A DNA stretch of 64,000 nt from Deltaproteobacteria bacterium (lineage in GTDB: Bacteria; Bdellovibrionota; FAC87; UBA2466): NCBI GenBank assembly GCA_016196825.1, contig JACPWY010000019.1, positions 22,644-86,643 of the forward strand, given 5' to 3'. A program made the translations under genes and the position numbers. Position 1 is the first letter of the stretch. Every line of letters begins with the position of its first letter. The notes beneath the pieces are model-generated. The model did no database searches. It worked only from the letters and a program-made list of their open reading frames with translations, and had not been told where the DNA came from. Below are positions 16,886 to 34,425 of the stretch, piece after piece.

Positions 16886-18380
16886 TCATACCGGATCGGA
16901 CGTTCTTACGCTGCAAGATGGTGTGAAGCTGCATTCGCGCGACGGGCCGAGGGGGCGTGTGGGGAACGAGAGGAAAAAGGTGCTTCCCTTTCCGAGTCGG
17001 GAATCTACCCAAATTGTACCGCCGTGATTTTCCATCACCTTTTTGCAGCTGGCTAGCCCGATACCGGTGCCCGGAAATTGAGATTGGCTGTGTCCGCGCT
17101 GGAATATTTCAAAGACCTTTTTGGTGTCCGCTTCGTCAATGCCGATTCCATTGTCTGAAAATGAAATCACAAAGTGATCTCCCTCGGTCGAGGCGGCAAT
17201 GTGGATCTTGGGCTTTCTGCGCGAGTATTTAAGGGCGTTGTCGACGATATTCATGAAGAGACGCCGCAGTTGAACCTCGCTCCCAACTACCTCCGGCAGA
17301 AGATCGAAGGAGATGTCGGCTCTCTTCTCGGTGATTTCGGGGGCCAGAATGGCGAGCACGTCGCGCGCCACTTTGACGAGCGAGATGACCTTCATCTCGG
17401 GCTTTGAGTAGGACACAGATGAGTATTCGAGGAGGTCTTCAACAACTTCCTGCATCCGCTTCGATTCCGAAAGGATGGTTCCCAGGTACTCCTGGCCGCG
17501 ATCGTCTAGTCGATCGCCGTACTCCCGGGCGAGGAGAGCCGCGTAATGGTTAGCGGTGCGGGCGGGTGCTTTCATATCATGTGAAGCGATCGAGGTGAAA
17601 TGTTGAAGTTGCTCATTGGAATCCGAAAGGCTCTGGGCCCGATCAGAGAGGACGGTTTCGAAGGCCTTTTGGGCGGTGATGTCGGAATAGATGTGGAGAC
17701 GAATGTCCAGGCTGGTGGAGGTGTCTTGGATTTTGCGGGATTCTCCCTTAAGCCAAACTATTCGCCCCCGGGGAAGGACAACCCGAAATTCCTGAGCCGC
17801 ATTGCCCCCTTCCCAAGTCCCTGGCTCGAGGAGGTCTTCTAATTTCCTGTCTTTCAGCTCAGTCGACGATGGCCGCTGAAAAAGACGGGCCATGGCATCG
17901 TTGGCTCGCAAAATGCGATCCTCAGTATCCACCTCCACCATGGCGACCGGCGCGAGGTCGAAGAGGGAGCGAAAATTTTTCTCGCTTTCCTCGAGTCGTT
18001 TTTCAAGGCGATAGGCATTCAGGGCGATCTCTATCGTTGTTTTTATGGAATGGTCCCGGTAGGGCTTCATCAAATAGCCAAAGGGGTGCGTCTTTTTGGC
18101 CTTTTCAATAGTTTGATCGTCAGAAAAGGCCGTGACAAAAATCACGGGGATATCGAAACGGTCGTGAATGATCTGAGCGGCGGCCGTCCCATCGGGCATT
18201 CCCCGCAGCTGGATATCCATCAAAACGAGATCGGGCCTTTCTTTTTCCGCCGTCGCGATGGCCTCTTCCGCCGTGAAGGCTATTCCAGCGCTCCGATACC
18301 CCAACTCCAATAGTTTTTCTTCGAGGTTCATGGCCGCGAGGCTTTCGTCCTCCACGATGAGAATTCTCTCATTGGACATG
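16886..18380 (-). CDS. hybrid response regulator / sensor histidine kinase (REC-PAS-HisKA-HATPase_c)
   Basis: ATG at 18380 gives MSNERILIVEDESLAAMNL…DLVLMDIQLRG (REC domain). C-terminal H-box FTSIASHDMKAP and G-boxes DNGIGI / GTGIGL follow. It starts 9 bp after the upstream kinase gene. Confidence 0.75.
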
Positions 18381-21300
18381 GTGTTCCCCTGTTTGATGAT
18401 GAGAAGGACTTCCAAAAAAGATGGAAAACTTAGCGCCGTGATCGATATCCATGTGAACCCTCCCACCGATCTGGCGGGTGAGCGTCTTCACTAATCGCAG
18501 GCCAAGCGACCTCGAGCGGTCAATGTCGAAGGCCTCGGGAAAGCCGACGCCGTCGTCCTCGACAACCAGCTCATAATCTCCCTCGACACGATTTTTATGG
18601 ATTCCCACCCGAATCGTCCCCTTCTCTTTGTTGTGAAACGCGTATTTCAGGGAGTTGGAGACCAGCTCGTTGATGATCAAACTGCATGGGATGGCGGTGT
18701 CGATTTCAAAGTCCGCGTCGTGGATGTCGAGCTTCACGGTCACGCGATTAGGGTCGACTCCGTAAGAATGGAACAGGGTACCGAGGAGATCTCTCACGTA
18801 CTCTTCGAAGTCGATTCGAGTCAGATTCTTCGACTGGTAGAGCTTTTCGTGAACCATCGCCATCGATACCACGCGATTCTGCGCCTCTCGAAAAGCGCCC
18901 CCCAGAGACTGGTCTTTGATGGATCTGAGCTGAAGGTCGAGCAGGCTTGAGATGACGTTGAGATTGTTTTTCACCCTGTGGTGAATCTCACGCAACAGAA
19001 TTTCCTTTTCCGCCAGTGCCGTGCGAATTCTCTCCTCAGACTCCTTAACGCGGTTGAGGTTGGGACTTACAGTCGCCCAGGCCATGGCCTTGCCCGAGCG
19101 ATCCCTGATCAGGAAGGCGTTCCAGATCGTGTGAATGGATGCTCCGGTCGTAAAGTGCCTGAATCGCACCTCACCGGACCACCGCCCCTTTGATTCCAGA
19201 GCTGGAATCGCTGTGGATTGAATGAGGGCTCGATCGTCCGGATGGAAGTAGTCGAGCAGAGCGGTCTTACTGATATCGTCGACAGATGTGAGCCCCACCA
19301 TCTCTCTGCCCGCCTCATTCACATAGATCGGCGCCATTTCGGGCGTACAGATGCCGATAAAATCATTGCTCCCCTCCACTACGGCGGCGAGAGTTCGCAT
19401 TTGGGAATCCATCTCCTTCTTGACGGTGATATCTCTCACGGCGACAATCACATAGGCATCAGCATCAGCATCAGCATCAGCATCAGCATGGATCGCCCCT
19501 TGTCCGGGGCTCAAGCTGATCTCCACCGGAAAGAACCGGCCATCCTTCCTCACCCCGAGAAGGTCCTTTCCAGCTCCCATGGCGCGGATGGTGGCATTCT
19601 GAAAATAGCTTTCCCTGAGAGAGACATGCTGCGCGCGGATGCTCTCGGGAACCAGAATCTCAACGGGCTGACCGATCAGCTCGCTCTTGGAATAACCAAA
19701 CATCCTTTCGGTTTCATTATTGACGTAGGTGATCTGACCTCGGAAACCCACGATCATCATGGCGTCGGGGGCTGACTCGAGAACCGCCCGAAACCGCCGC
19801 TCGTGCGCCAGCGCCTCGGCCTCGACTCTTTTTCGCTTCGACATGTCCCAACACACGCCAACCAGTCGGATGGGGTTGCCCTGTTCGTCGTTGTAACTCC
19901 TGCCCCGGACCTGGACGGTGTGGACCGAACCATCGGGCCAGCACGCGCGGTATTCGTCGTCCAATTGGAGGGTTGTGCCCGCAATAGACCGAACCTTCGT
20001 GTCCGCGCGCGAGCGATCCTCCGGGTGCAGCAAGGAAAGAAAATGCGAGTAGCTTGTCTCAAAGGTCTCGGGAGCTGTTCCGAAGATCTTGTGCATTCTC
20101 GCATCCCACGAAACCACTCCCGCGTTGATGTCCAACTCCCATCTCCCCATTTCCGAGGAAGAGAGAGACAAAGCAAGCTGAGATTCGCTGGTTGCGAGCA
20201 ATCGGGTCCTCTCTTCAACCTTTTTTTCCAGATTTCCAGCCAGGTCTCTGAGTGCGTGAGTCTGCTCCTGAACCCGTACCTCTAGGCGATCAGAATCCCC
20301 TTTCCGCAGTCTCCACAAATGAGCAAGGAGGGAGAGTAAAAGAGAGAAAAAAATCCCCCCCGAAAGCACCTTCCAGCGGGTGAGCGAGACCATCGCTTCA
20401 GCCTCGGCGCGCAAGGGAAGGATGACCATTTCCCATTTGGTGTCTTCATCCAACGGGAAGGTGACGTGCTGCCACCAATCAGCAGAGGAGGGCACGTTCG
20501 TAGGGGAGCGCCGATAAATCTCATGAGCATCTGAGAGAACCAGAAACCCAGAGCTCTCCTCCGCTGAGCTAGGAAGCAAATCCCGAATGAGAGAGTTAGC
20601 CCCAAACTCCGCCACCACGGCCCCGAGCCCTTTGACCGGAACTACAAAGAGAAGCGTTGTTGCCGTTTCATCAGGAACCCACACTGGGTGCTTTTGCCTC
20701 GTGGCAGTCGCTACCGCCCGCGGGAGGAAATGATCGAGATTGGAGAGCGGAAAGAGATTGGTTGAGATCAAGCTTTGCGATCCATTGCCTTGAGGCAACA
20801 GGCGAATGGAGCGAAGGGCGGTGTAATCTGGAAAATATTGAGTGGAGTCTTCCCTCCAAAATTTCAGATAGCTATCTCCGGCGATCTCCCACCTCCTGGC
20901 GATCCGCTTGATGGCTCTCTCTTTTTCTCGCAGGCCCAGCTGAACAATTCTCTGGGCCCCTTCCACCTTTTTTGAAAAAACATGTTGAATCTGGTCTCTT
21001 TCGTTCGCGGTCACGGCCTGCCACATAATGACCGAAACCGTCAGCCCCGAGATTCCCACCGAGATGGCGAGCCAGGACGGAATCTGCCGGGATTCTCGCC
21101 AGCTTTGGAAAAACGCGCGAGTGCCCAACGCGACGCTCAAGAGAAGGAAGAGGCCCGCCGTGTGAATGGCCATCCCAGTCAGCCCGGCCCACTGATGCGA
21201 GGGCGGGATTCCTGCCAGATAACCGTAGAGTGCGGCCACGGCCGATGCGCCCACAAATCCCGCCAGCGTGCTCGAAAACCAGCTCCTTTTTAGGGGAGAG

Positions 21301-21770
21301 AGCCGGCGACTCAGGGCACATATTTCGGCAACGCTCAGCAAGGCAAAGCTCAGGGCGGTCGGCGCGTCCATTCTGCCTGGGTAGGGAGCCCAGGGGAGAG
21401 GAAATGCCGACACAAAAAACTGATCGATTCCCAGGTTTTTTCCCGTGATGTATTCGAGGAGCGTGAGCCCTGAAATCACGAACGTGACGGCCACGAGCCC
21501 CCAGGCGAGAAGTTTGCGGAGAGGGGGGCGGCCGTCGAGAAGAGCGAGAATGCCCAAGGCCAGGAAACAAATCGCCGTGTTGAATTGCATCGGAGCCGAA
21601 TTGGGAAAGAGCTGAATCAACCCCGCGCTATGGATATGCCATGCGTAGACACCCAGGGCCCCGAAGAAAATCGTGATGATCCCGGTCGCTCGGTGAAGCA
21701 CGCATTCAAAACGCGACATCTGCGCTAAAAACATGCCTGCATTTTCATCTTTCTCGATCCACGAACGCAA
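18369..21770 (-). CDS. membrane-anchored multi-PAS sensor histidine kinase (HisKA_2/HWE-type H-box)
   Basis: The N-terminal about 330 aa are polytopic membrane. Several PAS/PAC blocks follow. H-box [27 protein letters not shown] is of HisKA_2 type, followed by an ATPase domain ([11 protein letters not shown]…DDGVGFP). Confidence 0.75.
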   Translation of the reverse strand: MRSWIEKDENAGMFLAQMSRFECVLHRATGIITIFFGALGVYAWHIHSAGLIQLFPNSAPMQFNTAICFLALGILALLDGRPPLRKLLAWGLVAVTFVISGLTLLEYITGKNLGIDQFFVSAFPLPWAPYPGRMDAPTALSFALLSVAEICALSRRLSPLKRSWFSSTLAGFVGASAVAALYGYLAGIPPSHQWAGLTGMAIHTAGLFLLLSVALGTRAFFQSWRESRQIPSWLAISVGISGLTVSVIMWQAVTANERDQIQHVFSKKVEGAQRIVQLGLREKERAIKRIARRWEIAGDSYLKFWREDSTQYFPDYTALRSIRLLPQGNGSQSLISTNLFPLSNLDHFLPRAVATATRQKHPVWVPDETATTLLFVVPVKGLGAVVAEFGANSLIRDLLPSSAEESSGFLVLSDAHEIYRRSPTNVPSSADWWQHVTFPLDEDTKWEMVILPLRAEAEAMVSLTRWKVLSGGIFFSLLLSLLAHLWRLRKGDSDRLEVRVQEQTHALRDLAGNLEKKVEERTRLLATSESQLALSLSSSEMGRWELDINAGVVSWDARMHKIFGTAPETFETSYSHFLSLLHPEDRSRADTKVRSIAGTTLQLDDEYRACWPDGSVHTVQVRGRSYNDEQGNPIRLVGVCWDMSKRKRVEAEALAHERRFRAVLESAPDAMMIVGFRGQITYVNNETERMFGYSKSELIGQPVEILVPESIRAQHVSLRESYFQNATIRAMGAGKDLLGVRKDGRFFPVEISLSPGQGAIHADADADADADAYVIVAVRDITVKKEMDSQMRTLAAVVEGSNDFIGICTPEMAPIYVNEAGREMVGLTSVDDISKTALLDYFHPDDRALIQSTAIPALESKGRWSGEVRFRHFTTGASIHTIWNAFLIRDRSGKAMAWATVSPNLNRVKESEERIRTALAEKEILLREIHHRVKNNLNVISSLLDLQLRSIKDQSLGGAFREAQNRVVSMAMVHEKLYQSKNLTRIDFEEYVRDLLGTLFHSYGVDPNRVTVKLDIHDADFEIDTAIPCSLIINELVSNSLKYAFHNKEKGTIRVGIHKNRVEGDYELVVEDDGVGFPEAFDIDRSRSLGLRLVKTLTRQIGGRVHMDIDHGAKFSIFFGSPSHHQTGEHHVQ
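19456..19490. repeat. hexanucleotide SSR (gcatca)x5-6 inside the kinase CDS, encoding (Ala-Asp)n
   Basis: gcatcagcatcagcatcagcatcagcatcagcatg is read directly. The minus-strand translation is HADADADADADAY, in a PAS-PAS linker. Confidence 0.8.
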
Positions 21771-22492: not shown

Positions 22493-23683
22493 TCACCCCC
22501 TAAGCGAACAGACGTCAATCCCGCCCTCTCGATAGCTCTCATTGGTGTGGGTTAGCATCATCAGTCGCGGTTTCTCGGAGCGTGCTCTTTCTTGGAAAGC
22601 AATCAGACTGGCCCAATCCCGACGTGTCGGAGCTTCACCATCAAAAGGACGAATGGCAAGTGGTGGTGGACTGTTTCTCGCCTTTGGAAAACTGATGACC
22701 ACTGGAATCCTAGAGGATTTCTCATTTCGATAATACTCCAGTCTCGGTCGACCGAAACCGTGATACTCCAAAGTGGATAAGGCCTGAACGGCTACGAATG
22801 TCCGCAACTGCGTGTCGCGGTTGGCTCCGAGAGAGTGGGCGATTCCACTGTCACACAAGATGTATTCTGATTTCCCGACGCCGGCTTGGTGCGGTCTTAA
22901 TTCTCTCAGGACGAATATTCTGGTGAATGCGTCTAGATATCGTTGAACCACTCGCCTGTCACGACCTACGACTATGGCAATGGCCGCCGCGGTGGGCTCT
23001 TCCTGTCTCGCCACCGCGCTCAGGATATCTTGAGCCAGTTCTCCATCAAACTTTCCGGAACCGGCCCTGGAAATGTCTCTTTGGCACGTGGTCTCAATCC
23101 AAACGGAGACCGCGCTTGAAAACTCGGAATCGGTTCTCAGAAAGCAGATCCCGGGCATCCCACCTCGCTCCAGTGTCCTATCAAATTGCGTCAAAGAAAT
23201 TTGGCTTTCCGATTTCCGAAAAGTCAGAAAATATTTCCCCATTTTCTTTTCATGAAGTTCGGAACAATTGAGAGGGTATAACTGAATCAGCCCGATTCGC
23301 CCCGTCAATGACTCTCTCACGCCGGTGTACCGGGAAAATTCAGTCGAACCGCTGATGACATACATTCCGGGGCGCCGCCTTTCATCAACATGCAACTTAA
23401 TCGCGTCAAAGAGATCGGGGACCTTTTGTATCTCATCAATGAAAAGCGCCTCCCCCTTGATTCTCGGGGCACTGAAACTCTCGGGTGCTCTCGTGGCCCG
23501 TTCCCGATCCTTCTTTGAGTCCATCGTGTGATAGTCGCCCGACACGCAGGGAGCTAGAAGCTCCCTTAGCAATAGGCTTTTACCGCACTGCCTGACTCCC
23601 ACCACACCCAAAACAGGCCACAACCGAATTCGTTTCTTGAGTAACTCCAGAACGTCGCGCTCTCTTCTGTGTGCCATTGACAA
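22493..23683 (-). CDS. AAA_14/DUF4143 family ATP-binding protein
   Basis: Walker A GVRQCGKSLLLRELL and Walker B/arch region ALFIDEIQKVPDLFDAIKL, with a C-terminal DUF4143-like region. It is a paralog of 40535..41677 and of the fragment at 24478..24969. Confidence 0.65.
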   Translation of the reverse strand: MSMAHRRERDVLELLKKRIRLWPVLGVVGVRQCGKSLLLRELLAPCVSGDYHTMDSKKDRERATRAPESFSAPRIKGEALFIDEIQKVPDLFDAIKLHVDERRRPGMYVISGSTEFSRYTGVRESLTGRIGLIQLYPLNCSELHEKKMGKYFLTFRKSESQISLTQFDRTLERGGMPGICFLRTDSEFSSAVSVWIETTCQRDISRAGSGKFDGELAQDILSAVARQEEPTAAAIAIVVGRDRRVVQRYLDAFTRIFVLRELRPHQAGVGKSEYILCDSGIAHSLGANRDTQLRTFVAVQALSTLEYHGFGRPRLEYYRNEKSSRIPVVISFPKARNSPPPLAIRPFDGEAPTRRDWASLIAFQERARSEKPRLMMLTHTNESYREGGIDVCSLRG

Positions 23684-23765
23684 AGCATACCGTTTTTTAC
23701 GTGTAGACGCAATTATCGGTATGATATGAGCGCTTCGTTCAAGGCGCCGATTCAGTTCTAGAGCA

Positions 23766-24140
23766 TCACCACATAGCCTTCCCGAAGTGCCTGAGAATAG
23801 ACCGGTCCTTGGTCACAAGTCTTGCATTGCCGATGATGGCCTGTGCGACGAGTAGGCGATCAAATGGATCTCTCGTCCACGATTGCTCTATGGCCGCTTC
23901 GCTGATCAGCTCGAACGATTCTGAGGCCAAAACCAAGCCCACGCGCATCTCAAGGTCTCTCAAAATCTCTTTGGAACCGACCGATACCTTTCCGGCCTCG
24001 TGGAGATACTCCAACTCGAGCGAAACCATCGGGGAAATGCTGAGGTCGTTGACCTCAATCAGTTTTTTCGCTTTATCGGAAATGAGCTCGCTGCGCCCGT
24101 AATAGAGCCAAACCACCACGTGGGTGTCGAGGTGAATCAT
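23766..24140 (-). CDS. vapC: PIN-domain ribonuclease toxin VapC
   Basis: IHLDTHVVVW…DPFDRLLVAQAIIGNARLVTKDRSI is the PIN acidic-residue pattern. ATG at 24140 overlaps the antitoxin stop (ATGA). Confidence 0.7.
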   Translation of the reverse strand: MIHLDTHVVVWLYYGRSELISDKAKKLIEVNDLSISPMVSLELEYLHEAGKVSVGSKEILRDLEMRVGLVLASESFELISEAAIEQSWTRDPFDRLLVAQAIIGNARLVTKDRSILRHFGKAMW

Positions 24141-24367
24141 GGAAGCTTTGGCTTCCAGTGTTTCGACCAATCCATGTGAACAAGCTCTTCGGGGTCGCCA
24201 CTCAACCCTTCACGTCGCTCTAGCCGATCTAGCTTGCTGACACGCTCGAGAGCCGAAATCCGTATGGTCCTTCCCTTCCGCACGATCTCGATGGGACGCC
24301 CGGTCTTCAAGACCTGGTCCAGTAACCGATAGATATTGGCCCTCAGGCGCGAGGCGTTCAGCTTCAT
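24137..24367 (-). CDS. Phd/YefM-type antitoxin (VapB-like)
   Basis: MKLNASRLRANIYRLLDQVLKTGRPIEIVRKGRTIRI is a typical Phd/YefM N-terminal fold sequence. It is 4-bp coupled to vapC. Confidence 0.55.
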   Translation of the reverse strand: MKLNASRLRANIYRLLDQVLKTGRPIEIVRKGRTIRISALERVSKLDRLERREGLSGDPEELVHMDWSKHWKPKLP

Positions 24368-24477
24368 CCCAAAAGAATAGCAAAAAAGCGTACGTATTTT
24401 CAATATTAAAACGTACGTATTCGATGACGTCTACAGGCGTTTTGACAAGACTCCAAAAACGTTGAGAATTTTGGAGT

Positions 24478-24969
24478 ATGGTCCATCGACTTTGTAACCC
24501 TTTGATGTCACGATCTTTTTTTCTCTTCGGGGCGCGCTCCACCGGAAAGAGCACGCTCATCCGGCAGCTTCCCGCGTTTGACGAACGCCATTACGTTGAC
24601 CTGCTCGACGATGAGGTTTTGAACGAGTATTCACGGGATCCGAAAAAGCTGGAGATGCTGGCGTCAGAAAGTGATTGGGTCTTCATTGATGAAGTTCAAA
24701 AATCGACAAAACTTCTCAATACTGTGCACAAGCTGATCGAAAAGAAGAAAACCAAATTTGCTCTGACCGGGTCTAGCGCACGCAAGCTGAAGCGCGGCGG
24801 TGCAAACCTGTTAGGCGGGCGGGCCAATGTGTTTCATCTCTACCCCTTGACCGCCAGGGAAGCGTTTCTATCTCTCCCAGGACCACAAGACCGGCGAGTC
24901 AGAGGGCGTTCAGTGTCTTCATTGGGAAGAATTTCTAGCCAAAGTTTTTGTCTGAACAGGTTTCAGTAA
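24478..24969 (+). pseudogene. truncated AAA_14/DUF4143 ATPase (N-terminal 163 aa only)
   Basis: Walker A GARSTGKSTLIRQL and Walker B WVFIDEVQKSTKLLNTVHKL are present. The ORF stops after about 160 aa, whereas full-length paralogs are 380-396 aa, and it runs convergently into the REC gene. It is either a fragment or a different short-form protein. Confidence 0.45.
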
Positions 24970-25651
24970 CGGCGGGGTGGACTCCACCTCGCGATTCCGC
25001 CCCTTGTTCTTTTCTGAGGTTTAGAAGAAAGTCGTCAATCAATTCCCCCACTTTCCGAGCGCCATCGACTGAAACCTGAAGGAGTCGCTCCAGTTCCGGG
25101 TCAGATCTCTCTGTGCCCTTTCTCTGAAGGAGTGAAAGGTGGGTTGAAAGCATTCGAAGGGGCTGTTTCAAATCATGGGAGGTAATCGATGCGAATTGTT
25201 CGAGCGCGCGGTTGGATCGGCTAAGCTGTTCCTCCAAAGCCCGTTGTTTTTCCAGAGAAATCAGGAGGCCCTTTTCGAGGCGAATTTTTTCAAGTGCAAT
25301 CTCAATGGTCGAGCGAATGGCGGTGTCACGCACTGGTTTCACGAGGTATCCGTAGGGAGCTGTATTCTGGGCGCGGAAGAGCGTTGCGTCGTCTGAGAAC
25401 GCTGTCAGATACACAATCGGGGTGTTGTTCGATTCTTTGATCTGGATCGCAGCCTCAATCCCATCCATTTCTCCTTTGAGCTTAATGTCCATCAAGATGA
25501 GATCCGGCACGGTCTCCGCCGCCTTCTTGATGGCCTCGGCACCGGAAAAGGCTATGCCAGCACATTCGTAGCCCAGCTGGACCAATTTGGTTTCTAGATT
25601 CATCGCCGCGACGGCTTCGTCTTCGACGACTAAGATGCGCGTTTTATTCAT
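24935..25651 (-). CDS. response-regulator receiver protein with C-terminal HisKA (DHp) segment but no ATPase domain
   Basis: [18 protein letters not shown]…[11 protein letters not shown] is a REC domain. [16 protein letters not shown] is an H-box. The ORF ends about 90 aa later with no N/G boxes. It is 4-bp coupled to the upstream kinase. Confidence 0.6.
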
Positions 25652-28185
25652 TGCTGACCCCCCACGGCGGCAGCCCTTTCGGGTGAAGGAAATCGAATTT
25701 GATAATGGGTTCCGGCTATCCCGGTGGGAGGGCTCATCAATTCCGCGTCAAGCTGACGACTGAGCATTGTGACGAGCTTCAGTCCCAAGGAGCGGGCTTT
25801 CGTTACGTCGAACCCACTCGGAATGCCAACGCCATCATCAGAAACCGCCAATTCGAGATTCTCACCATTTGGGGACTGACGCATTGATATACACACTTTC
25901 CCTGTTTTCCTTCCCTTGAATGCGTGCTTGAGCGAATTCGACACCAGTTCGTTAATGATGAGACTGCAAGGAACAGCGGTATCTATAGGCAGAGAAATAC
26001 TCTCTGTCTGGAGAACGGGCTCAAATTTCGAAGGGTCAACCCCATAGGAATGGTAGAGATTCAGGACCAACTCCCTCACATAGGAATGAAAATCAATCTC
26101 TGCAATGCTCTTGGATTGGTAAAGTTTTTCGTGGATGAGAACCATCGAGATGATGCGATTCTTACTCTCGGCGAATGCTTCATGGAGTTCGGGGTCAGCA
26201 ACATGGGTGGATTGGAGGTCGAGAAGGCTCGAGATGATATTGAGGTTGTTCTTCACACGGTGATGGATTTCACGGAGAAGAACCTCCTTTTCTCTGAGTG
26301 AGGCCTCAACTTGTTTCTGCGCATTCTTGCGACTCGTAATATCGCGAATGGTACTGGAAATAATAACACCAGCCGGAGTTTGCAAAGGGCTGAGGCTGAT
26401 CTCAACGGGAAACTCACTTCCATCTTTCCGCAAACCGTACAACTCCATTCCGCTTCCCATGGGGCGTGCCTTGGGATTTGCGAAATAATTGTTGCGATGC
26501 GCGGGATGTTTTTGTCGAAAACGCTCCGGTATGAGTGCCTCGACATATTGGCCGAGTAGCTCATTGCGCTGATACCTGAAGACCTCCTCCGTCTGTGCGT
26601 TGATTAAGACAATCTTACCTGCCCTGTCTGTAATCACCATGGCATCGGGTGCCGATTCGACGAGGCCCCTGAGGTTTTCTTCTGCTCTCTTTTGTGCCGT
26701 GATATCCCGAGCGATCTTGGAGGCCCCGACAATGTTCCCGCTTGCGTCTTTTATGGGAGAAACGGTGATGGACATCTCCACAATAGTCCCATCTTTTCGA
26801 ATGCGCGCGGTTTCATAATGCTCAATCCGCTCCCCGTGCTTGAGCCTTTCCAAAATATGAGCCTCTTCATCGGCAAGGGAAGAGGGAACTAACAAAGAGA
26901 TGGGTTTTCCCAATATCTCATCATTTGCATAACCAAAAATTCGTTGGGCACCTTCGTTCCAGCTAGTCACTTTGCCGTCCAGTGTTTTTCCGATAATCGC
27001 ATCGTCGGAGAAAGTGACAATCGCCGCAAGCTTGGCAAGTTCCCCTTCGGCTCGCTCACGCTCCCTTACCTCAAGCTTCAGTTTCTCTTTTTCTGAATTC
27101 AAATCCTCCAGGATATTGAAGGCGGCCCGTTGCAGGTCTTCCATTTTTTCGCGTTCAGCACTAAAGTCTTCCAAAATGTTGAAAGTCGCAGCTTGGGTGT
27201 CCTCAATCTTCGATTTCTCAGACGCAAAGTCTTCAAGAATATTGAAGGTAGCATGTTGAGTGCTTTCGCTTTTCAACCGTTCCTGAGCGAAGTCATCCAG
27301 AATATTGAAGGTTGCCCGCTGATTTTCCTCAAGACGTAGTCTTTCAGTGGCAAAGTCTTCAAGAATATTCACGGCCGCCCGCTGCATATCTTCCAACGAC
27401 TGGACTTGCTTGCTTTCGGTGAGATCACGAGTGATCTTGGAGAATCCGATGAGATTGCCCGTATTATCTCTGATCGCGGAGATAATGATATTAGCCGAGA
27501 ACCTTGAGCCGTCTTTCCTGACTCGCCAACCCTCGTCTTCGAATCTCCCTACCCGTGCAGCGACATCAAGCTCGTGTTGGGGTTTACCATGATTAACATC
27601 TTCCTCTGTGTAGAACTTTGAAAAGTGTTGGCCGATAATCTCATCGGCCGGATACCCTTTGATCCGCTCCCCACCGGCGTTCCAACTGAGAACGGTGCCT
27701 TTTGTATCAAGTATGAAGATGGCATAGTCTTTGACGCTCTCAACGAGAAGACGGAGCTTTTCCTCGCTTTCACGGAGGGCAGCATCGGCGTGCATTCTTT
27801 CCGTGAGATCCCGGATGACTTTACCAAACCCCACGAGCCGACCGTCGCTATCACGAATGGCCCCAATGACGGCATTCGCCCAAAAACGGCTGCCGTCTTT
27901 GCGAACCCGCCAACCCAGATCCTCGGAGCGTCCTGTTTCCTTGGCAATTTTAAGCTCTCGTTCGGGTTTTCCGGCCTCGATATCCCCCTTGGGATAGAAC
28001 TGAGAGAAATGGCTGCCCAGGATCTCTTCGGATCGGTAACCTTTGAGTCGCTCCGCGCCCGCGTTCCAGCTCACAACCCTTCCTTCGGGATCGAGCATGA
28101 CAATGGCGTAGTCGACGACAGTGGATGCAAAGAGGCGAAAACGTTCTTCAGCCCTGTGCGGATCTTCGTGATGAGGTGAAAGCAT
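25648..28185 (-). CDS. cytoplasmic multi-PAS sensor histidine kinase (HisKA_2-type) with internal 21-aa tandem repeats
   Basis: Multiple PAS/PAC blocks ([12 protein letters not shown]…). H-box [27 protein letters not shown] and ATPase domain [11 protein letters not shown]…DDGVGIP. Five repeats of ..[10 protein letters not shown].. lie at aa 266-372. Confidence 0.75.
27070..27400. repeat. five tandem ~63-bp in-frame repeats inside kinase CDS
   Basis: DNA units of the type gtcttc(c/a)a(g/a)aatattgaag(g/t)… recur. They are translated as (Q/T)xA(A/T)FNILEDFxxE(R/K)x(K/R)xE(D/E) x5. Confidence 0.75.
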
Positions 28186-28200
28186 GACAAAGCTAATGAA

Positions 28201-29865
28201 TTACGCCGCTGGTCCCGAGCTCCTTTTCAGTTCCTCGATCTCCTTTTTAAGCTCAATCATCTTGAGCTCGCGTCCCACGGTGAGCTTTTGAAATCGCTCG
28301 AGTTCGGCCAGACGAACAAGCTCTCTGGTTCGTTGTTCCGCGACCTCTTTCTCGGCGCGTTTTTGGGCGGTCACGTCACGAGCAGCGGCGAAAACCCCCA
28401 ATACGTTTCCACGGACATCCTTATAAACGGAGGCGTTGTAAAGAACGTCGGTCAGCTTTCCATATTTGTGTCGAATCGTGAGCGGGTAATCAGATACGAA
28501 GCTTTTTGCAAATACCTGTTTGTAGCCCTCCCGCGCCTTCCCAGGCTCCGTGAAATAGTTCGAGAAGTCGGAGCCGATCAACTCCTGTCGCGAGGTGCCC
28601 GTGACTCTCATGGTCGCTTCATTAACGTCCATGATTTTGCCGTCAGGACTGATGGTCACGAGTGGATCTAAAGAGGCCTCAATCAAGCTTCGCGAATATT
28701 GTGACGCTTGTTTCTGCGCGGTCACGTCACGAGCAGCGGCGAATACGCCTGACACATTCGCGGTTCCATCCTTATAAACGGAGGCGTTGTAAAGAACGTC
28801 GCTCAGCTTTCCGTCTCTGTGCCGAATCGTGAGCGGATAGTCAGCGACAAACCCTTTGGCAAAGACTTGTTGATAACCTTCTCGTGCTTTCTCAGGCTCC
28901 GTGAAATAGTTCGAGAAGTCGGACCCGATCAATTCTTCTTGGGAAACACCGGTAACCTTGGTTGTGGCCTCGTTAACGTCCGTGATCTTACCATCGGCGC
29001 TAATGGTCACGAGTGGATCTAAGGAAGCCTCGATCAAGCTGCGGGCGTATTGCGACGCTTGTTTCTGCGCGGTCACGTCGCGAGCGGCGGCAAACACGCC
29101 CAGCACATTTCCGCGAACGTTCTTATAAACAGACGCATTGTAAAGAACATCGGTCAGCTTTCCGTCCTTGTGCCGAATCGTGAGGGGATAGTCGGAGACA
29201 AACCCTTGAGCGAATACCTGCTTATATCCCTCTCGCGCTTTCTCAGGCTCCGTGAAATAGTTCGAGAAGTCGGACCCGATCAATTCTTCTCGGGAAATAC
29301 CCGTAACCTTGGTTGTGGCCTCGTTAACGTCTGTGATCTTACCATCGGCGCTAATGGTCACGAGTGGATCTAAGGACGCCTCGATCAAGCTTCGGGCATA
29401 TTGAGCAGCTTGCTGCGAAGCCTCTTTCTGGGCCGTCACATCGCGTGTAATGGACGAGACACCCACGACGTCGCCTATTTTATTCTTAATTGGCGACACC
29501 GTCAGGGAGACGTCGATAATCACGCCATCTTTTTTAATGCGCTTCGTATCGTAATGCTCAGTTTTCTCACCTCGTTTAATCTTTTCTATGACGGGCGCCA
29601 ATTCGTTGGAATGGTCTTTCGGCACCAGGGTGTAAATTGATTGGCCGATCATCTCATCTGTTGTGAATCCGTAAATTCGTTCGGCGCCTTCGTTCCAGCT
29701 GGTGATCGTGCCGTCCAGATCCTTGCCTACGATCCCATCGTCGGCGGACTCGACAAGTGATGCGAGCCGGTCGCGATCATCCTCGAAACTGCTCGCCATC
29801 GATCCTTTTTCCTTCGAATACTTTCTGTATTGTGATTTTATCGGCACTTGGGTTTGCTCATGCAT
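28201..29865 (-). CDS. PAS-domain-only signalling protein with three near-identical tandem PAS repeats and C-terminal coiled coil
   Basis: An N-terminal PAS block is followed by three copies of a ~106-aa PAS unit (TAQKQASQYARSLIEASLDPLVTISADGKITDVNEAT…VFAAARDV). The tail is ELVRLAELERFQKL… with no output domain. Confidence 0.7.
   Translation of the reverse strand: MHEQTQVPIKSQYRKYSKEKGSMASSFEDDRDRLASLVESADDGIVGKDLDGTITSWNEGAERIYGFTTDEMIGQSIYTLVPKDHSNELAPVIEKIKRGEKTEHYDTKRIKKDGVIIDVSLTVSPIKNKIGDVVGVSSITRDVTAQKEASQQAAQYARSLIEASLDPLVTISADGKITDVNEATTKVTGISREELIGSDFSNYFTEPEKAREGYKQVFAQGFVSDYPLTIRHKDGKLTDVLYNASVYKNVRGNVLGVFAAARDVTAQKQASQYARSLIEASLDPLVTISADGKITDVNEATTKVTGVSQEELIGSDFSNYFTEPEKAREGYQQVFAKGFVADYPLTIRHRDGKLSDVLYNASVYKDGTANVSGVFAAARDVTAQKQASQYSRSLIEASLDPLVTISPDGKIMDVNEATMRVTGTSRQELIGSDFSNYFTEPGKAREGYKQVFAKSFVSDYPLTIRHKYGKLTDVLYNASVYKDVRGNVLGVFAAARDVTAQKRAEKEVAEQRTRELVRLAELERFQKLTVGRELKMIELKKEIEELKRSSGPAA
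28440..29400. repeat. three tandem ~318-bp near-identical repeats (each encoding one PAS domain)
   Basis: DNA blocks beginning gtcacgtcacgagcagcggcgaa… recur at about 28365, 28715 and 29065 with few substitutions. Protein repeats differ at about 10% of positions. Confidence 0.75.
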
Positions 29866-30013: not shown

Positions 30014-30165
30014 ACTTTCTACTCGGAACGATCAAAACACCCTGGCCCTTCGTTCTCCGGTATCGCTTGATCGCCAACTTTTAAAAGAAAGGGCCCGTTC
30101 TCCCCGGTCCGGGACATTTTGCCTCGCTCCTCCCGACGAAAGGGATTTAGGGATAGGCTCTTAGC
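30014..30165. repeat. MITE-like palindromic repeat, copy A (variant core)
   Basis: Shares the left arm ctttctactcggaacg…cctggcccttcg and right arm ggacattttgcctcgctcctcccgacgaaaggg…taggataggctct with copy D (56697-56874). It has a different central segment. It lies in a divergent intergenic region. Confidence 0.6.
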
Positions 30166-30250
30166 CCAACGCATTAACGCGCTAGACTGCCTAAAACACT
30201 TCAGAATTTCGCCTGTTTTGCCGATAATAGAGAAGTCCTCCACCCAAACC

Positions 30251-31048
30251 ATGCGATCCCTCTGCATCATTCCGGTCTATAACCAGGCGCTTGATCTTTC
30301 TTTGGTGCTTGAGAAGTGTCGAAAGGGAATCGCGTGCGATGAAATTCTTTTGGTTGATGATGGCAGCGATGATGGGTCTGAGACCCTTATCGAGAAGTCG
30401 GGTTTTCGTTTTCTGAAACTCAAGGAGCGAAAGGGGATCGGCCACGCCCTTATCCAGGGAACTCAGTACGCGATCGAGCAGGGATTCGATATCGTGATCC
30501 ACATGGCCGGCAATGGGAAGATGGATCCGGCCGAGATGCCTCGGGTCCTCAATCCCATTTTGGAGGGGAAGGCCGATTACGTGTGGGGGAGTCGATTTTT
30601 GCCGGGCGGACGCTGTGACAATACGCCCGCCATTCGTCGGTACGGGATCCCGTTTTTGTTTAATCTGATTCCACTCATCTTCACGGGTAAGCGGGTGAGT
30701 GATGCCACCTGCGGATTTCGGGCCTACCGGGTCGCTCTTCTCGAGGATATCGCGAAGGGTTGGGATCTGCCGTGGCTCTTCAAATATGAGTTTGAGTATT
30801 TTGTTCTAGCGAAGGTCCTCTTGAGTCGGCGCTACCGCTATCAGGAGGTGCCCATCAGCATGATCTATCCGGCCCGCAGGAAGAACTACTCGAAGATCAC
30901 GCCTGTCATTTCATGGTGGTCGATGCTTAAGCCGTGGATCGTGGTGCGCCTAGGGCTCGAGCCGAAGCGGATTAGTTCCGCGTCGTCGACTCCACTCCCA
31001 AAACGGCCTGATGAACGGCCGGCTTCTCAACAACGGGCCGAGGGTTGA
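30251..31048 (+). CDS. glycosyltransferase family 2 (polyprenyl-phosphate sugar transferase-like)
   Basis: ATG at 30251 gives MRSLCIIPVYNQALDL…ILLVDDGSDDGS (GT-A fold, DxD). The longer ORF from 30119 runs into the repeat element and is unlikely. Confidence 0.7.
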   Translation: MRSLCIIPVYNQALDLSLVLEKCRKGIACDEILLVDDGSDDGSETLIEKSGFRFLKLKERKGIGHALIQGTQYAIEQGFDIVIHMAGNGKMDPAEMPRVLNPILEGKADYVWGSRFLPGGRCDNTPAIRRYGIPFLFNLIPLIFTGKRVSDATCGFRAYRVALLEDIAKGWDLPWLFKYEFEYFVLAKVLLSRRYRYQEVPISMIYPARRKNYSKITPVISWWSMLKPWIVVRLGLEPKRISSASSTPLPKRPDERPASQQRAEG

Positions 31049-31442
31049 TGAGCGTTTTCATGTTTTCTCGCCCCAAGTAGGGCCCCTGCTTCAACTCCAA
31101 AAACTCCGTGTCTTCCAGAAAGTGAAAGGCGTGGCCGCCCCTTAAGAGGAGAAGCGAATCGCCTGGTCCCATTTCGAATTCCTTTAAGAGTGTGTCCGAG
31201 GTGTCATAGACGGAGGCGATCACTTTCCCCCGCTTGACCATGATGAACTCCTGAAACTCTTCAACTACGGCGGCCTTCCCTCTGTGGCGGTGAGGCTCCA
31301 CGCATCCCCCTTTTTTGAAAACGCCGATGCCCAACTGAATGGGCTCGCTCAGAGGTGTGAGGAAGCTCGTCTTCTCAGGGGAGTGCGTGGCTCCAATGAA
31401 AATGGCGATCATCTGGTCGCCTGATGTCAGAATCTCAAGCAT
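30972..31442 (-). CDS. WbuC-like cupin-fold protein
   Basis: MLEILTSGDQMIAIFIGATHSPEKTSF…GGCVEPHRHRG has a cupin His cluster. The start is ambiguous (ATGs at 31463 and 31442), and the upstream ORF region is the other-frame shadow of the methyltransferase. Confidence 0.45.
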   Translation of the reverse strand: MLEILTSGDQMIAIFIGATHSPEKTSFLTPLSEPIQLGIGVFKKGGCVEPHRHRGKAAVVEEFQEFIMVKRGKVIASVYDTSDTLLKEFEMGPGDSLLLLRGGHAFHFLEDTEFLELKQGPYLGRENMKTLINPRPVVEKPAVHQAVLGVESTTRN

Positions 31443-32181
31443 GGCCCACTCCTCGGCAAACATATAACAGATTGTAGTCCGTTGGCGAAACCGGCGCCTC
31501 TCGGTAGGCAGGGAGCATGTCAAGGCACTCCCATTCCGCGGCCCGGAGGTTCGCCAGGAATTCTCTCGGTGTTTGGTAATACATCGTGTGATTTTCAGAG
31601 GCCGAAAATCCATTGCGGCTGGAGAGGTCGATTCGAATCTCAAGTTTTTGTTGAATCCAATCCAGTTCAGCCACGGACTGACGGGTGTAAAGCGCTCCGT
31701 CGGACCCTGGGGCTGAGCGTTCGCGGTAGGAGGCGAACTGAAAAGGCACCGCCGAGCCGTTCCAAACGTCGAAGATGGCAATCCCTCCCGGCTTCAGACA
31801 AAGGCGCAGGCGCTTCAGTGCCGCCAAAAGGGGCTCCCCATGGGGCAGGTAGTTTAAGACAGAAAACAGAGACAGAACGAGATCGGTGGCCCCGTCGGGT
31901 GTGTGGTCCAGAAATGCGATGGGGAGCTCGGTTTTCTTGGCTCGCTCGCGAGCCAGAGCGAGCATGTCGGGGGAGCTGTCGACGCCGGTCACGGTCCAGC
32001 ATTGGCGTGCGAGCTGTTCGCAGTGTCGGCCGGTGCCGCAGCCGTAATCGAGTGCTGTCTTTCCGCCCGAGCGGCCATGGCGATCCCAGAGCGAAAGAAC
32101 GAGGTCGATCTCCTTTTCATAGTCCTTCCCGGCGTAGAAGGCGTCGTACAGGCTCGAGTACCGCTCGCCGAAGGGGGTCAT
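31435..32181 (-). CDS. class I SAM-dependent methyltransferase
   Basis: ALDYGCGTGRHCEQLARQCWTVTGVDSSPDMLALARERA is SAM motif I plus post-I. Confidence 0.7.
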   Translation of the reverse strand: MTPFGERYSSLYDAFYAGKDYEKEIDLVLSLWDRHGRSGGKTALDYGCGTGRHCEQLARQCWTVTGVDSSPDMLALARERAKKTELPIAFLDHTPDGATDLVLSLFSVLNYLPHGEPLLAALKRLRLCLKPGGIAIFDVWNGSAVPFQFASYRERSAPGSDGALYTRQSVAELDWIQQKLEIRIDLSSRNGFSASENHTMYYQTPREFLANLRAAEWECLDMLPAYREAPVSPTDYNLLYVCRGVGHA

Positions 32182-33311
32182 GGGGTGAGCACCCTCCGCA
32201 GCGTCGCTGCAATACGATCGATCTCCGATTCCGTCAGGTGGCTACTCGACGGCAGATAGAGTCCTTTGGCGCCGAGGTGTTCCGCGATCGGGAGCGACTG
32301 ACCGGTTTGGAAGATGGGCTGGGTGTGCATGGGCGAAAAGAAGGGCCGGGATTCGATGCCCCGCTCTTTCAGAAGGGCCATCGCGTCTGAGACGGTCCGC
32401 TTGGTGTAGCTTGGTCGCAAGACGATGCCGTACATCCAATAACAGTTGCGGGCCCACTCTCGCTCGACGGGGAGCTGGATGAGATCCTCGAGTGTGCGGA
32501 GCCGGTCGGAGTAGCGGCGAGCGTTTTGTCGTCGCATTTCGACCAGGCTCTCAAACCGCTCCGTTTGAGCGCAGCCGAGGGCTGCCTGGAGATTGGTCAT
32601 GCGATAATTGAAACCCACCTCTTCGTGGTGGTAGCGCCGCTCGCCCTTCAGGGGAAACGCGAGATTTTTGAGGGAGCGGCAGCGGTCTGCGAGTTCACGA
32701 CGGTTGGTGCAGACCATTCCCCCTTCTCCGGTCGAAATGATCTTGTTGGCGTAAAAGGAGTAGACCGTCACATCGGGGAGGGCGGCGAGCTTTTTGCCCT
32801 GGTAGAGGGCGCCGTGCCCTTCGGCCGCATCTTCCAGCCAGCTCAGGCCGTGTTGACGGCAAAACGAGGCGATCGGATCCAAATCACACGGGTGACCGTA
32901 GATCGTGACCGACATCACCGCTTTGGTGCGCGGGGTGAGGGCGGCCTTGAGTTGAGCGGGATCCATCGTCCAGGTGTCGGGATCGGAATCGATAAACACA
33001 GGAGTGGCGCCGCAGTACTGAATGGCGAGGGCGGAGGCCACCATAGTGAAGGACGGAAGGATTACCTCGTCGCCCCCTCCAATCCCCAAGGCCTTAAGTC
33101 CTAGGTGGAGACCGACGGTTCCGTTGCAGACGGCGATCCCCTCGCGAGCGCCAACCTTTTCGGAAAAGGTCTCCTCAAATCTCGGAATGAATTCGCCCGC
33201 GGAGGAGATCCAGCCGGTCGAGACGGCGCGAGTGACGTATTCGAGCTCGCGGGGGCCGAGGGTGGGCTCACAGACCGGGATGCGCTTCTGATCCATGCGA
33301 GGCTCTCCCAA
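32178..33311 (-). CDS. DegT/DnrJ/EryC1/StrS family sugar aminotransferase
   Basis: IPVCEPTLGPRELEYVTRAVSTGWISSAGEFIPRFEETF…AVCNGTVGLHLGLKALG is typical of the family. Confidence 0.8.
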   Translation of the reverse strand: MGEPRMDQKRIPVCEPTLGPRELEYVTRAVSTGWISSAGEFIPRFEETFSEKVGAREGIAVCNGTVGLHLGLKALGIGGGDEVILPSFTMVASALAIQYCGATPVFIDSDPDTWTMDPAQLKAALTPRTKAVMSVTIYGHPCDLDPIASFCRQHGLSWLEDAAEGHGALYQGKKLAALPDVTVYSFYANKIISTGEGGMVCTNRRELADRCRSLKNLAFPLKGERRYHHEEVGFNYRMTNLQAALGCAQTERFESLVEMRRQNARRYSDRLRTLEDLIQLPVEREWARNCYWMYGIVLRPSYTKRTVSDAMALLKERGIESRPFFSPMHTQPIFQTGQSLPIAEHLGAKGLYLPSSSHLTESEIDRIAATLRRVLTP

Positions 33312-34425
33312 ATAGCTGTGCCCTTGTCGACGATTTCACGCCCAGGGCGTTGGCGATGGCATTGACCACTGTGTGTTGAATCGCGGGTGTCATCTGGGGC
33401 CAAATGGGTAATGACAAAACCTCTTGCGCCGCCTGTTCGGCGATAGGGCACGAAATAGCGAGGTGCTGGTACACCGGCAATTGGTGCACCGGGGTGGGAT
33501 AATAGACGATCGTTGATACGCCGGCCTTTTTGAGGCTTTCGACTACCGCATTTCGCCGCCCGTCCCGAATTCGGATTGTGAACTGATGATAGACATGGCT
33601 TTCAGAATGAGGGGTGCATCCGACGCCCGGCATGTCGCTCAACAGATCTGTGTAAAGGCGAGCAGCCACATTGCGGGCGGCGTTCATCGCCTCGACGCGA
33701 GGGAGCTTGATGCGAAGAATGGCGGCCTGCAGTTCGTCGAGGCGCGAGTTGTACCCGAGTGTCTCATTACGATAGCGTTCGATTGAGCCATGGGTGCGAA
33801 GTTTTCGCGCCTGAAGCGCCAACTCGGGATCGGATGTGACGACCAGCCCCGCATCGCCGAAAGCCCCCAGGTTTTTCGTTGGAAAAAAGGAGAAGCACCC
33901 GACGGTGCCTAAAGAACCCAATCGTCGTCCATGGCGACGACCTCCGAAAGCCTGAGCCACATCTTCAATAATGGGCACATTGGCCTTCTGCCCAATCTCA
34001 ATGATGCGATCCATGTCGGCGCTCTGTCCGAAAAGATGAACCGGAAGGATCGCCTTGGTGCGATTCGTTATCAAAATCTTATCGGGATCGATGTCGAAAA
34101 ACTTGGGCCGAATGTCGGCGAAGACGGGGCGAGCCCCCACTAGGCTAATCGCTTCGGCGGTTCCGAAAAAAGTGAACGGGGTGGTGATCACCTCATCGCC
34201 GGGGCCAACGCCCAGGGCTCTGAGCGCGATCACAAGTGCATCGGTGCCCGAATTGAGGCCGACCGCATAGGGGACTTCCAAAAAATGAGCAACCTCCTGC
34301 TCGAAGCGCGCCCCCTCCTCACCGAGGATGAAATGGCCGCTCCTCACAACTCGTTCGAGGGCGAGCGAAATCTCGGGCCACAGCGCTTCAATTTCAGGTT
34401 TGAGGTCGAGGATCGGTATCATCAC
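33268..34425 (-). CDS. DegT/DnrJ/EryC1/StrS family sugar aminotransferase (second copy)
   Basis: MMIPILDLKPEIEAL…GLNSGTDALVIALRALGV. The downstream partner's start codon lies within its last 44 bp (33268-33311). Confidence 0.8.
   Translation of the reverse strand: MMIPILDLKPEIEALWPEISLALERVVRSGHFILGEEGARFEQEVAHFLEVPYAVGLNSGTDALVIALRALGVGPGDEVITTPFTFFGTAEAISLVGARPVFADIRPKFFDIDPDKILITNRTKAILPVHLFGQSADMDRIIEIGQKANVPIIEDVAQAFGGRRHGRRLGSLGTVGCFSFFPTKNLGAFGDAGLVVTSDPELALQARKLRTHGSIERYRNETLGYNSRLDELQAAILRIKLPRVEAMNAARNVAARLYTDLLSDMPGVGCTPHSESHVYHQFTIRIRDGRRNAVVESLKKAGVSTIVYYPTPVHQLPVYQHLAISCPIAEQAAQEVLSLPIWPQMTPAIQHTVVNAIANALGVKSSTRAQLFGRASHGSEAHPGL

Follow-up and report, generated by a model that had tools for sequence, protein, structure and literature searches.

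Tandem PAS array encoded beside a repeat-stalk histidine kinase in a Bdellovibrionota genome: the probable input half of a two-protein sensor kinase

The window analysed here, a stretch of 64 000 nt from the genome assembly of a Deltaproteobacteria bacterium (Bdellovibrionota; GenBank GCA_016196825.1, contig JACPWY010000019.1, positions 22 644–86 643), carries a gene for a protein made up of PAS domains and, directly downstream, a gene for a histidine kinase. All positions below are those of the window. The first-pass annotation, which gave no strand, had singled out the PAS gene for a tandem repeat; the gene lies on the minus strand. Features of the locus are listed in Table 1. An alternative start of the PAS gene, the ATG at 29799, would give a protein of 532 aa and was used in the gene call of a metagenome-assembled genome (MAG) deposited at NCBI (locus L081, described below). 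Exact look-up of the PAS-only protein with either start returned no match, since the one copy that has been deposited departs from the window in unit 3, and an Rfam scan of the window was also without a match.

Table 1. Coordinates of the PAS array, its partner kinase and associated features in the window
Feature	Residues	Window position	Strand	Remarks
PAS-only protein gene		28201..29865	(-)	554 aa from ATG 29865 (GAGGTG 4 nt upstream); stop codon 28201-28203
N-terminal PAS domain	aa 30-150	29416..29778	(-)	Other subtype, outside the repeat; best Pfam stretches aa 33-147
Tandem array		28360..29412	(-)	3 units x 351 bp (117 aa), one PAS domain each; Tandem Repeats Finder, unit HMM
Unit 1	aa 152-268	29062-29412	(-)
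Unit 2	aa 269-385	28711-29061	(-)
Unit 3	aa 386-502	28360-28710	(-)
C-terminal helical tail	aa 495-554	28204..28383	(-)	Core AELERFQKLTVGRELKMIELKKEIEELK at 28225-28308
Spacer, PAS gene stop to kinase ATG		28186..28200	(-)	15 nt; no room for a promoter
Partner histidine kinase		25648..28185	(-)	845 aa; 2 PAS, 5 x 21-aa repeats, 2 PAS, HisKA_2, HATPase_c
Five 21-aa (three-heptad) repeats inside the kinase		27076..27390	(-)	Motif positions at 21-residue spacing
Third gene (REC + HisKA)		24935..25651	(-)	238 aa; Response_reg 1.2e-19, HisKA 1.3e-9; overlaps the kinase stop by 4 nt

Four PAS stretches of the PAS-only protein scored above the Pfam cut-offs (families PAS_9, PAS and PAS_4; 196.8 bits for PAS_9 against a cut-off of 27, and 184.9 bits for PAS against 22.6), and the sole NCBIfam model above its cut-off was the generic PAS model TIGR00229 (285.5 bits, cut-off 22.9). 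Neither scan revealed an output domain; HisKA, HisKA_2 and HATPase_c gave no match in Pfam or NCBIfam, so that the protein does not qualify as a histidine kinase itself. An AlphaFold2 (AF2) model based on 60 homologues (mean predicted local distance difference test score, pLDDT, 84.5; predicted template modelling score, pTM, 0.39) comprised four β/α PAS modules with block pLDDT values of about 85–97. These were joined by helices, the junctions being of low confidence, and the C-terminus formed a single long helix (model residues 477–527). The Pfam, NCBIfam and AF2 results thus bore out the earlier description of four PAS domains, a C-terminal helix and no output domain. Comparison of the model with PDB using Foldseek gave 726 matches at E ≤ 0.001, and all of the 50 listed were PAS-containing proteins; those listed were generic multi-PAS proteins (PpsR, DosP, NifL, MmoS and FixL) with 12–22 % identity. 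A PDB sequence search with a single unit detected only the PAS domains of phytochrome A (E 7e-4).

The repeat was delimited by Tandem Repeats Finder as one array at 28359–29403 with a period of 351, 3.0 copies, 83 % matches and a score of 1392, and a separate repeat search returned three copies with start-to-start spacings of 351 and 351 nt. Unit borders were anchored on the recurring peptide RSLIEASLDPLVTIS at aa 158, 275 and 392, and the units lie in frame within the 554-aa open reading frame (ORF). A hidden Markov model (HMM) of the unit scored 247–250 bits on each of the three array units and only 34 bits on the N-terminal PAS domain, a subtype that recurs at the N-terminus of many homologues. 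Three tandem repeats with one PAS domain in each, as first proposed, were therefore recovered from repeat spacing, Pfam and the predicted folds. The period of about 318 bp assigned to them was too short, the measured period being 351 bp (117 aa), and the proposed span of 28440–29400 lies within the array but begins 80 nt inside unit 3.

Homologues of the PAS-only protein were numerous: a protein search yielded at least 8000 scored candidates, of which 7999 had E ≤ 1e-20, and the best 120 were PAS-only proteins of 613–952 aa. Eighty genome loci of homologues were used for comparison, from Bdellovibrionota, Chloroflexota, Acidobacteriota, Myxococcota, Bacteroidota, Nitrospirota, cyanobacteria, Methanotrichaceae, Methanoperedens and others. 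Carriers in culture include Duganella violaceipulchra HSC-15S17 (L016), Simiduia aestuariiviva CECT 8571 (L031) and Dehalogenimonas etheniformans (P0071). The HMM of the three window units detected two to six strong copies in the genome loci, with about 135–240 bits each and mostly more than 170, spaced mostly by exactly 117 residues and sometimes interrupted by a PAS domain of about 135 aa of another subtype; metagenome loci widened the range to one to six units. Copy number therefore varies between species; no strain-level difference was seen. In an alignment of 288 units, 41 of the 117 positions were at least 95 % conserved and 79 were at least 80 % conserved.

No Cys residue occurs in the window protein, 271 of the 288 family units lack Cys, and no LOV-type (NCRFLQ-like) or CxxCH motif was found in any of them. 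By this sequence criterion covalent or Cys-dependent chromophores (LOV, PYP, c-type haem PAS and Cys-ligated Fe-S PAS) are excluded, and a non-covalent ligand is possible. The His of a TIRH motif was present in 259 of the 288 units.

The first-pass annotation had described the window units as near-identical and had taken this to mean recent duplication or ongoing concerted evolution, with copy number likely to differ between strains. Comparison of the units did not support this. Units 1 and 2 were 87 % identical in DNA and 89 % in protein sequence, with 30 of 45 differences at third codon positions, an NG86 synonymous divergence (dS) of 0.50 and a ratio of non-synonymous to synonymous divergence (dN/dS) of 0.11. 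The corresponding values were 79 and 89 %, 59 of 73, 2.0 and 0.03 for units 1 and 3, and 79 and 84 %, 53 of 74, 1.4 and 0.06 for units 2 and 3. Exact matches between units extended over at most 54, 31 and 35 nt, the 31-nt repeat being common to units 1 and 3 and the 35-nt repeat to units 2 and 3. Since dS was 0.5–2.0, dN/dS was 0.03–0.11 and the differences were mostly at third positions, a 117-aa PAS unit was triplicated in frame long ago and the copies have been kept under purifying selection.

It is nevertheless conceivable, though unlikely, that the units are recent duplicates or are homogenized by concerted evolution, with copy number changing frequently between strains through slippage or unequal crossing-over. 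Units 1 and 2 are mosaic, with 10 differences in 174 positions of the 5′ half compared with 35 in 177 of the 3′ half (Fisher p 9e-5, before correction for about 80 tested cut points), whilst pairs 1/3 and 2/3 are uniform (36–38 differences per half); the mosaic tract shows one past recombination event. Units 2 and 3 of the window are also slightly closer to their own unit 1 (89 %) than to the same-position units of loci L001 and L002 (81–86 %), and across the family mean unit identity was 83 % within a protein compared with 75 % between proteins, the nearest neighbour lying in the same protein for 103 of the 288 units. Unit number varies from one to six, and four of 365 within-protein unit pairs reached at least 95 % DNA identity (L006, L003, L035 and L073). 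Against frequent change, the window units have dS values of 0.5–2.0, their DNA identity of 79–87 % is in line with the family median of 80 % for within-protein pairs, and the exact matches are short. The three units are also kept in the MAG that is nearly identical to the window and in the closest relatives (L001 and L002/L084; 82–83 % aa identity). Unit 1 of the window matched unit 1 of L001/L002 at 93 %, and L001 and L002 corresponded position by position (97, 91 and 95 %). The median of 80 % and the four pairs of high identity indicate that the family shows repeat turnover and that the window units are typical and of middling age; recombination between units happens, but slowly. With the identities given and three units retained in the 99.8 %-identical MAG and the closest relatives, the locus does not behave as a hypervariable (contingency-type) tandem repeat. 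Unit pairs that are 96–97 % identical in DNA, as in units 2 and 3 of L003 (Methanotrichaceae) and in L006, L035 and L073, reflect recent duplication or conversion, unlike the window.

The reliability of the assembly at the repeat was assessed from other records of the same population. The source samples are groundwater, from the site of SRR12113416/7. The exact window kinase protein is on record in three places, one NCBI MAG and two Logan assemblies. The MAG contig (L081; GCA_016178225.1) was 99.8 % identical to the window over 14.5 kb, and all differences fell within 28573–28636 in unit 3, except for one single nucleotide polymorphism at 32236. In this interval L081 carries a stretch identical to unit 1 (100 of 100 positions), together with a 9-nt insertion duplicating Gly-Lys-Ile, so that its unit 3 has 120 aa compared with 117 aa in the window; the unit-1-like patch has the junction sequence GGCAAAATTGGTAAG and ends at the 31-nt exact repeat common to units 1 and 3. 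The two Logan contigs, L082 (99.9 % identical to the window) and L083 (100 %), both stop at 28445, inside the 35-nt repeat of units 2 and 3. Short-read assemblies therefore break or become chimeric at the array, the difficulty foreseen in the first-pass annotation. An artefact in the unit count or order of the window itself, caused by the failure of short reads to resolve the repeat, is suggested by the same contig ends and by the patch and insertion in L081. We regard this as very unlikely, given that the units differ by 13–21 % and each has unique sequence, that both inter-unit junctions occur in two independent assemblies (the window and L081), and that the closest orthologues also consist of an N-terminal PAS domain, three units and a tail. 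Of the two versions, that of the window appears more plausible than that of L081, since it keeps the exact 117-aa register of the family and agrees with the three units of the closest orthologues. Gene calls for this family from short-read MAGs should be treated with care, as three assemblies of the same population disagree almost only inside the repeat.

Conservation in the PAS-only proteins extended beyond the last unit. About 60 of the 80 homologues end 48–68 residues past it with the C-terminal sequence of the window protein, and in an alignment of 63 such tails the core was almost invariant from Bacteroidota to archaea. When 1.84 billion cluster representatives (one per protein cluster at 50 % identity) were searched by phmmer for the 60-aa tail, 1196 matched at E ≤ 1e-3 and 101 at E ≤ 1e-10, and nearly all of the top 150 matches ended within a few residues of the C-terminus. 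Normalized codon entropy was 0.89 in the tail (120 loci), compared with 0.73–0.82 in conserved PAS motifs. Synonymous sites in the tail thus vary freely and the constraint acts on the protein; a nucleotide-level constraint, such as an RNA element for translational coupling, was rejected as the cause of the invariance. Two other candidate origins of the tail were also rejected. It has an Arg at the position of the H-box His, and a degenerate H-box (a pseudo-DHp helix with His replaced by Arg) was considered, for which hhalign against the HisKA H-box region gave a probability of 6.5 % and aligned only ELE-F; homology of the tail to the 21-aa repeat of the kinase received an hhalign probability of 0.1 %.

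The partner kinase of the window matched HisKA_2 (1.3e-27; 96.1 bits, cut-off 22.3) and HATPase_c (2.8e-8; 34.6 bits, cut-off 26.4) in Pfam, in addition to four PAS stretches, and is by these two domains a HisKA_2/HWE-type histidine kinase. Its five 21-aa repeats compare with four in L001/L002 and in L084. Neither the 21-aa repeats nor the tail belongs to a Pfam or NCBIfam family or has a significant relative in PDB, and a word-indexed search of proteins using the repeat region was uninformative, yielding 17 short fragments and nothing else. The earlier observation that the PAS gene lies directly upstream of, and co-directional with, a multi-PAS histidine kinase gene held, both being on the minus strand with a 15-nt spacer. 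A scan found no terminator-like site between the two genes, and promoter-like matches in the region (seven, compared with a shuffled expectation of 3.9 ± 2.0) were not clearly above chance. Within the kinase gene, 27508–27550 and 27892–27934 form a direct repeat with a spacing of 384 (72 % over 43 nt). This reflects a second tandem duplication, that of the two N-terminal PAS domains, which are of one subtype (VxDYAIxxLD..G.V.SWN.G.ER.KGY) about 128 aa apart.

The pairing of the two genes was conserved in both search directions. Sixty loci with the tail, found via the PAS protein, had more than 1 kb of downstream DNA, and in 49 of these a co-directional ORF with at least two N-I-L-E-D-type motifs at an exact 21-residue spacing followed directly. 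Because these loci had been chosen through the PAS protein, a reverse search was also made, in which 80 metagenome loci were retrieved by the repeat pattern alone; 62 were evaluable, the first repeat being preceded by 450 nt or more. The tail motif was present in a separate ORF in 59 of the 62, ending 57–261 nt before the first repeat, and in the remaining three a PAS protein of three units likewise lies upstream. The kinase of one of these, L084, has a PAS-PAS extension of the window type, which places the tail further from the first repeat. The arrangement of a PAS array, a stop codon after the tail and a separate kinase gene is thus conserved in more than 100 loci. At the gene junction a 4-nt overlap was found in 20 of 50 pairs, and most junctions were within 12 nt. 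Such spacing is typical of translationally coupled genes, and the pair is probably coupled in this way. The pairing is essentially obligate in both directions. The suggestion of a modular sensor adaptor made in the first-pass annotation consequently has strong comparative support, with the gene pair conserved across phyla.

Partner kinases were mostly 300–430 aa long, with a short N-terminus, two to seven repeats (up to eight in metagenome loci) and a catalytic core. In Pfam only HisKA or HisKA_2 plus HATPase_c were found behind the repeats and most kinases had no other input domain; this holds for most family members, but not for the window or L001/L002, in which PAS domains flank the repeats. 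The consensus of 181 repeats was E-T-Q-R-A-T-L-N-I-L-E-D-F-x-x-E-K-x-R-L-E, with A5 conserved at 97 %, N8 at 99 %, L10 at 98 %, D12 at 100 % and E16 at 91 %. The same tail variant accompanied both types of core (22 HisKA and 12 HisKA_2), so that the constant partner of the tail is the stalk rather than the catalytic core. Kinases of the HisKA type have a ELEAFSYSVSHDLRAPLR H-box, which we take to be typical of phytochrome-type kinases. In 37 of the 62 loci the kinase gene was followed by a REC-containing ORF in the same orientation, typically one for a REC-only protein and then one for a REC-hybrid kinase; the REC-only protein of L003, L043, L064 and L070 (about 125–150 aa, ending ..LG.YW..LN..P) presumably resembles the Rcp1-type CheY-like regulators next to phytochromes.

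From these comparisons the PAS array and the kinase probably constitute a sensor kinase made of two proteins, with the PAS array as its detached input half. The PAS-only protein would be co-transcribed with a kinase that begins with a stalk of 21-aa (three-heptad) repeats, and the array would sense a cytoplasmic signal. The invariant tail would dock on the repeat stalk and thereby control autophosphorylation (we infer both the docking and the direction of regulation), and the phosphoryl group would then pass to a receiver protein encoded downstream. Docking is suggested because the tail and the repeats are far more conserved than ordinary coiled coils, because they co-occur regardless of kinase class, and because the conserved repeat residues lie on more than one helix face, as judged by helical-wheel reasoning from the consensus. 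The candidate contact is between TVGRELKMIELK of the tail and the A5/N8/D12/E16 face of the repeat.

Several points weigh against a docked two-protein kinase. Adjacency alone cannot give a mechanism, and the interaction of tail and stalk is a prediction from comparative data; the tail shows too little variation for covariation to be tested. The window kinase carries four PAS domains of its own and is not sensor-less. No cofactor or ligand could be named by homology, there being no Cys, no LOV or CxxCH motif and only generic PAS fold matches of 12–22 % identity. The number of PAS units and the number of 21-aa repeats were uncorrelated (Spearman -0.03, p 0.82), which argues against the pairing of one PAS unit with each stalk repeat, so that this arrangement was disfavoured. 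Three database proteins that read through the tail into the repeats (P0244, P0162 and P0232) were rejected as natural, Rosetta-stone fusions and were not used, as their C-termini are garbled and lack HATPase_c, probably through indel errors.

Conserved adjacency would fit any functional link equally well, and there is some chance, although a rather low one, that the PAS-only protein is linked to the kinase otherwise, as an anti-kinase or inhibitor, a scaffold for further partners or a co-expressed independent sensor, with the tail as a homodimerizing coiled coil. The lack of correlation between unit and repeat numbers and the PAS domains of the window kinase itself are compatible with this, and PpsR, the top fold match, exemplifies multi-PAS proteins that oligomerize via helical extensions (PMC3949515). 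An ordinary homodimeric coiled coil, however, would not be expected to stay near-invariant from Bacteroidota to archaea while synonymous sites vary freely. It is also the case that most partner kinases have no other input domain, and that the tail travels with the repeat stalk whatever the type of kinase core, both of which speak against this alternative.

Expression of both ORFs as one fused sensor kinase, via stop-codon readthrough or frameshifting, is highly improbable. The PAS gene and the kinase ATG of the window share a reading frame (TAA plus 15 nt with no further stop; 28183–28203), which would allow a readthrough product of about 1400 aa, and the three database proteins just mentioned would be of this kind. 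The junctions of homologues, however, are mostly 4-nt overlaps or gaps of 1–5 nt and out of frame, the ORFs were separate in 59 of 59 reverse-search loci, and the garbled, domain-less C-termini of the three fused proteins are typical of indel errors. Because the frame relation is not conserved in homologues, programmed readthrough or fusion was rejected and the in-frame junction of the window is probably due to chance.

A more far-reaching version of the two-protein sensor kinase can be put forward only tentatively. The tail and the 21-aa repeat would form an undescribed docking system across bacteria and archaea in which each repeat lands one tail, so that a sensor-less kinase would assemble an antenna of several multi-PAS proteins. 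Repeat numbers (one to six PAS units, two to eight stalk repeats) would tune gain or cooperativity, and the stop codon between tail and stalk, present in all 59 reverse loci with separate ORFs, would have been selected because the stoichiometry is not 1:1.

Stand-alone sensors encoded beside a cognate histidine kinase are a known arrangement, as in the case of H-NOX proteins with HnoK-type kinases. By its gene arrangement the PAS-array/kinase pair is of this kind: the sensor has no output domain and adjoins, co-directionally and across taxa (49 of 60 forward and 59 of 62 reverse loci), the gene of a cytoplasmic kinase. In most family members, but not in the window or L001/L002, that kinase lacks an input domain of its own. 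Unlike the H-NOX/HnoK type, the sensor is an array of one to six PAS domains, there are two highly conserved helical elements (the tail and the 21-aa stalk), and both HisKA and HisKA_2 cores occur. In split histidine kinases the split lies inside the catalytic machinery and separates the phosphoacceptor/dimerization part from the ATP-binding part. The partner kinases described here, by contrast, keep an intact core, with HisKA or HisKA_2 and HATPase_c in one protein; the split is between input module and stalk. Common to the PAS-array/kinase pair and the split kinases (PMC3591291; Hik36-Hik43, PMC7656254) is the division of a single kinase's functions between two polypeptides that are encoded together.

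The 117-aa unit also occurs inside complete multi-PAS sensor kinases, for example in Methanoperedens (L020 and L035), where the core is in the same ORF; in the family of the window, by contrast, the array ends in the conserved tail and a stop codon, and the kinase has a gene of its own. Tandem duplication of PAS domains is common. The window protein resembles PpsR/CrtJ (PDB 4hh2; PMC3949515), its top structural match (E 5.5e-21), in having several PAS domains and helical linkers, but identity was 16–17 % and the PAS units of the window are repeats of one subtype. It does not belong to PpsR/CrtJ, as TIGR02040 scored 82.4 bits against a cut-off of 275.4 and the Pfam scan contained no helix–turn–helix or other DNA-binding domain. 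The repeat itself is thus an ordinary, moderately diverged PAS triplication, and what stands out is its context, a widespread PAS-array/kinase pair with two uncharacterized conserved helical motifs. No published description of the tail/21-aa repeat pair, or of the motifs themselves, was found in a literature search that left most subscription-journal papers outside its coverage, and an earlier description is possible.

Downstream of the kinase, no ATPase domain was found in the third gene, which is apparently truncated. Next come a convergent short AAA_14 ORF (24478–24969), a PhdYeFM/PIN toxin–antitoxin pair and a full AAA_14 gene (22493–23683), the whole region spanning 22493–25651. An insertion may have truncated the third gene, since a full REC-hybrid kinase occupies this place in homologous operons. 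A second signalling pair lies on the minus strand at 16886–21770, comprising a 1133-aa PAS-HisKA_2-HATPase_c kinase and a 526-aa REC-PAS-HisKA-HATPase_c hybrid; neither of these proteins has the 117-aa unit, the tail or the 21-aa repeats. Upstream of the PAS gene there is a divergent sugar-modification cluster (30119–34425) with a GT2 glycosyltransferase, an S-adenosylmethionine (SAM) methyltransferase and two aminotransferase genes (DegT_DnrJ_EryC1 in the L081 record), which has no evident link to the signalling genes.

The comparisons point to a two-gene sensing module present in about 1200 protein clusters (50 % identity), in many bacterial phyla and in methanogenic archaea. Should the docking of tail on stalk prove true, it would offer a general means of coupling interchangeable sensor arrays to kinases of two catalytic classes, and the tail and repeat would provide a compact, portable pair of interaction motifs for the engineering of two-component systems.

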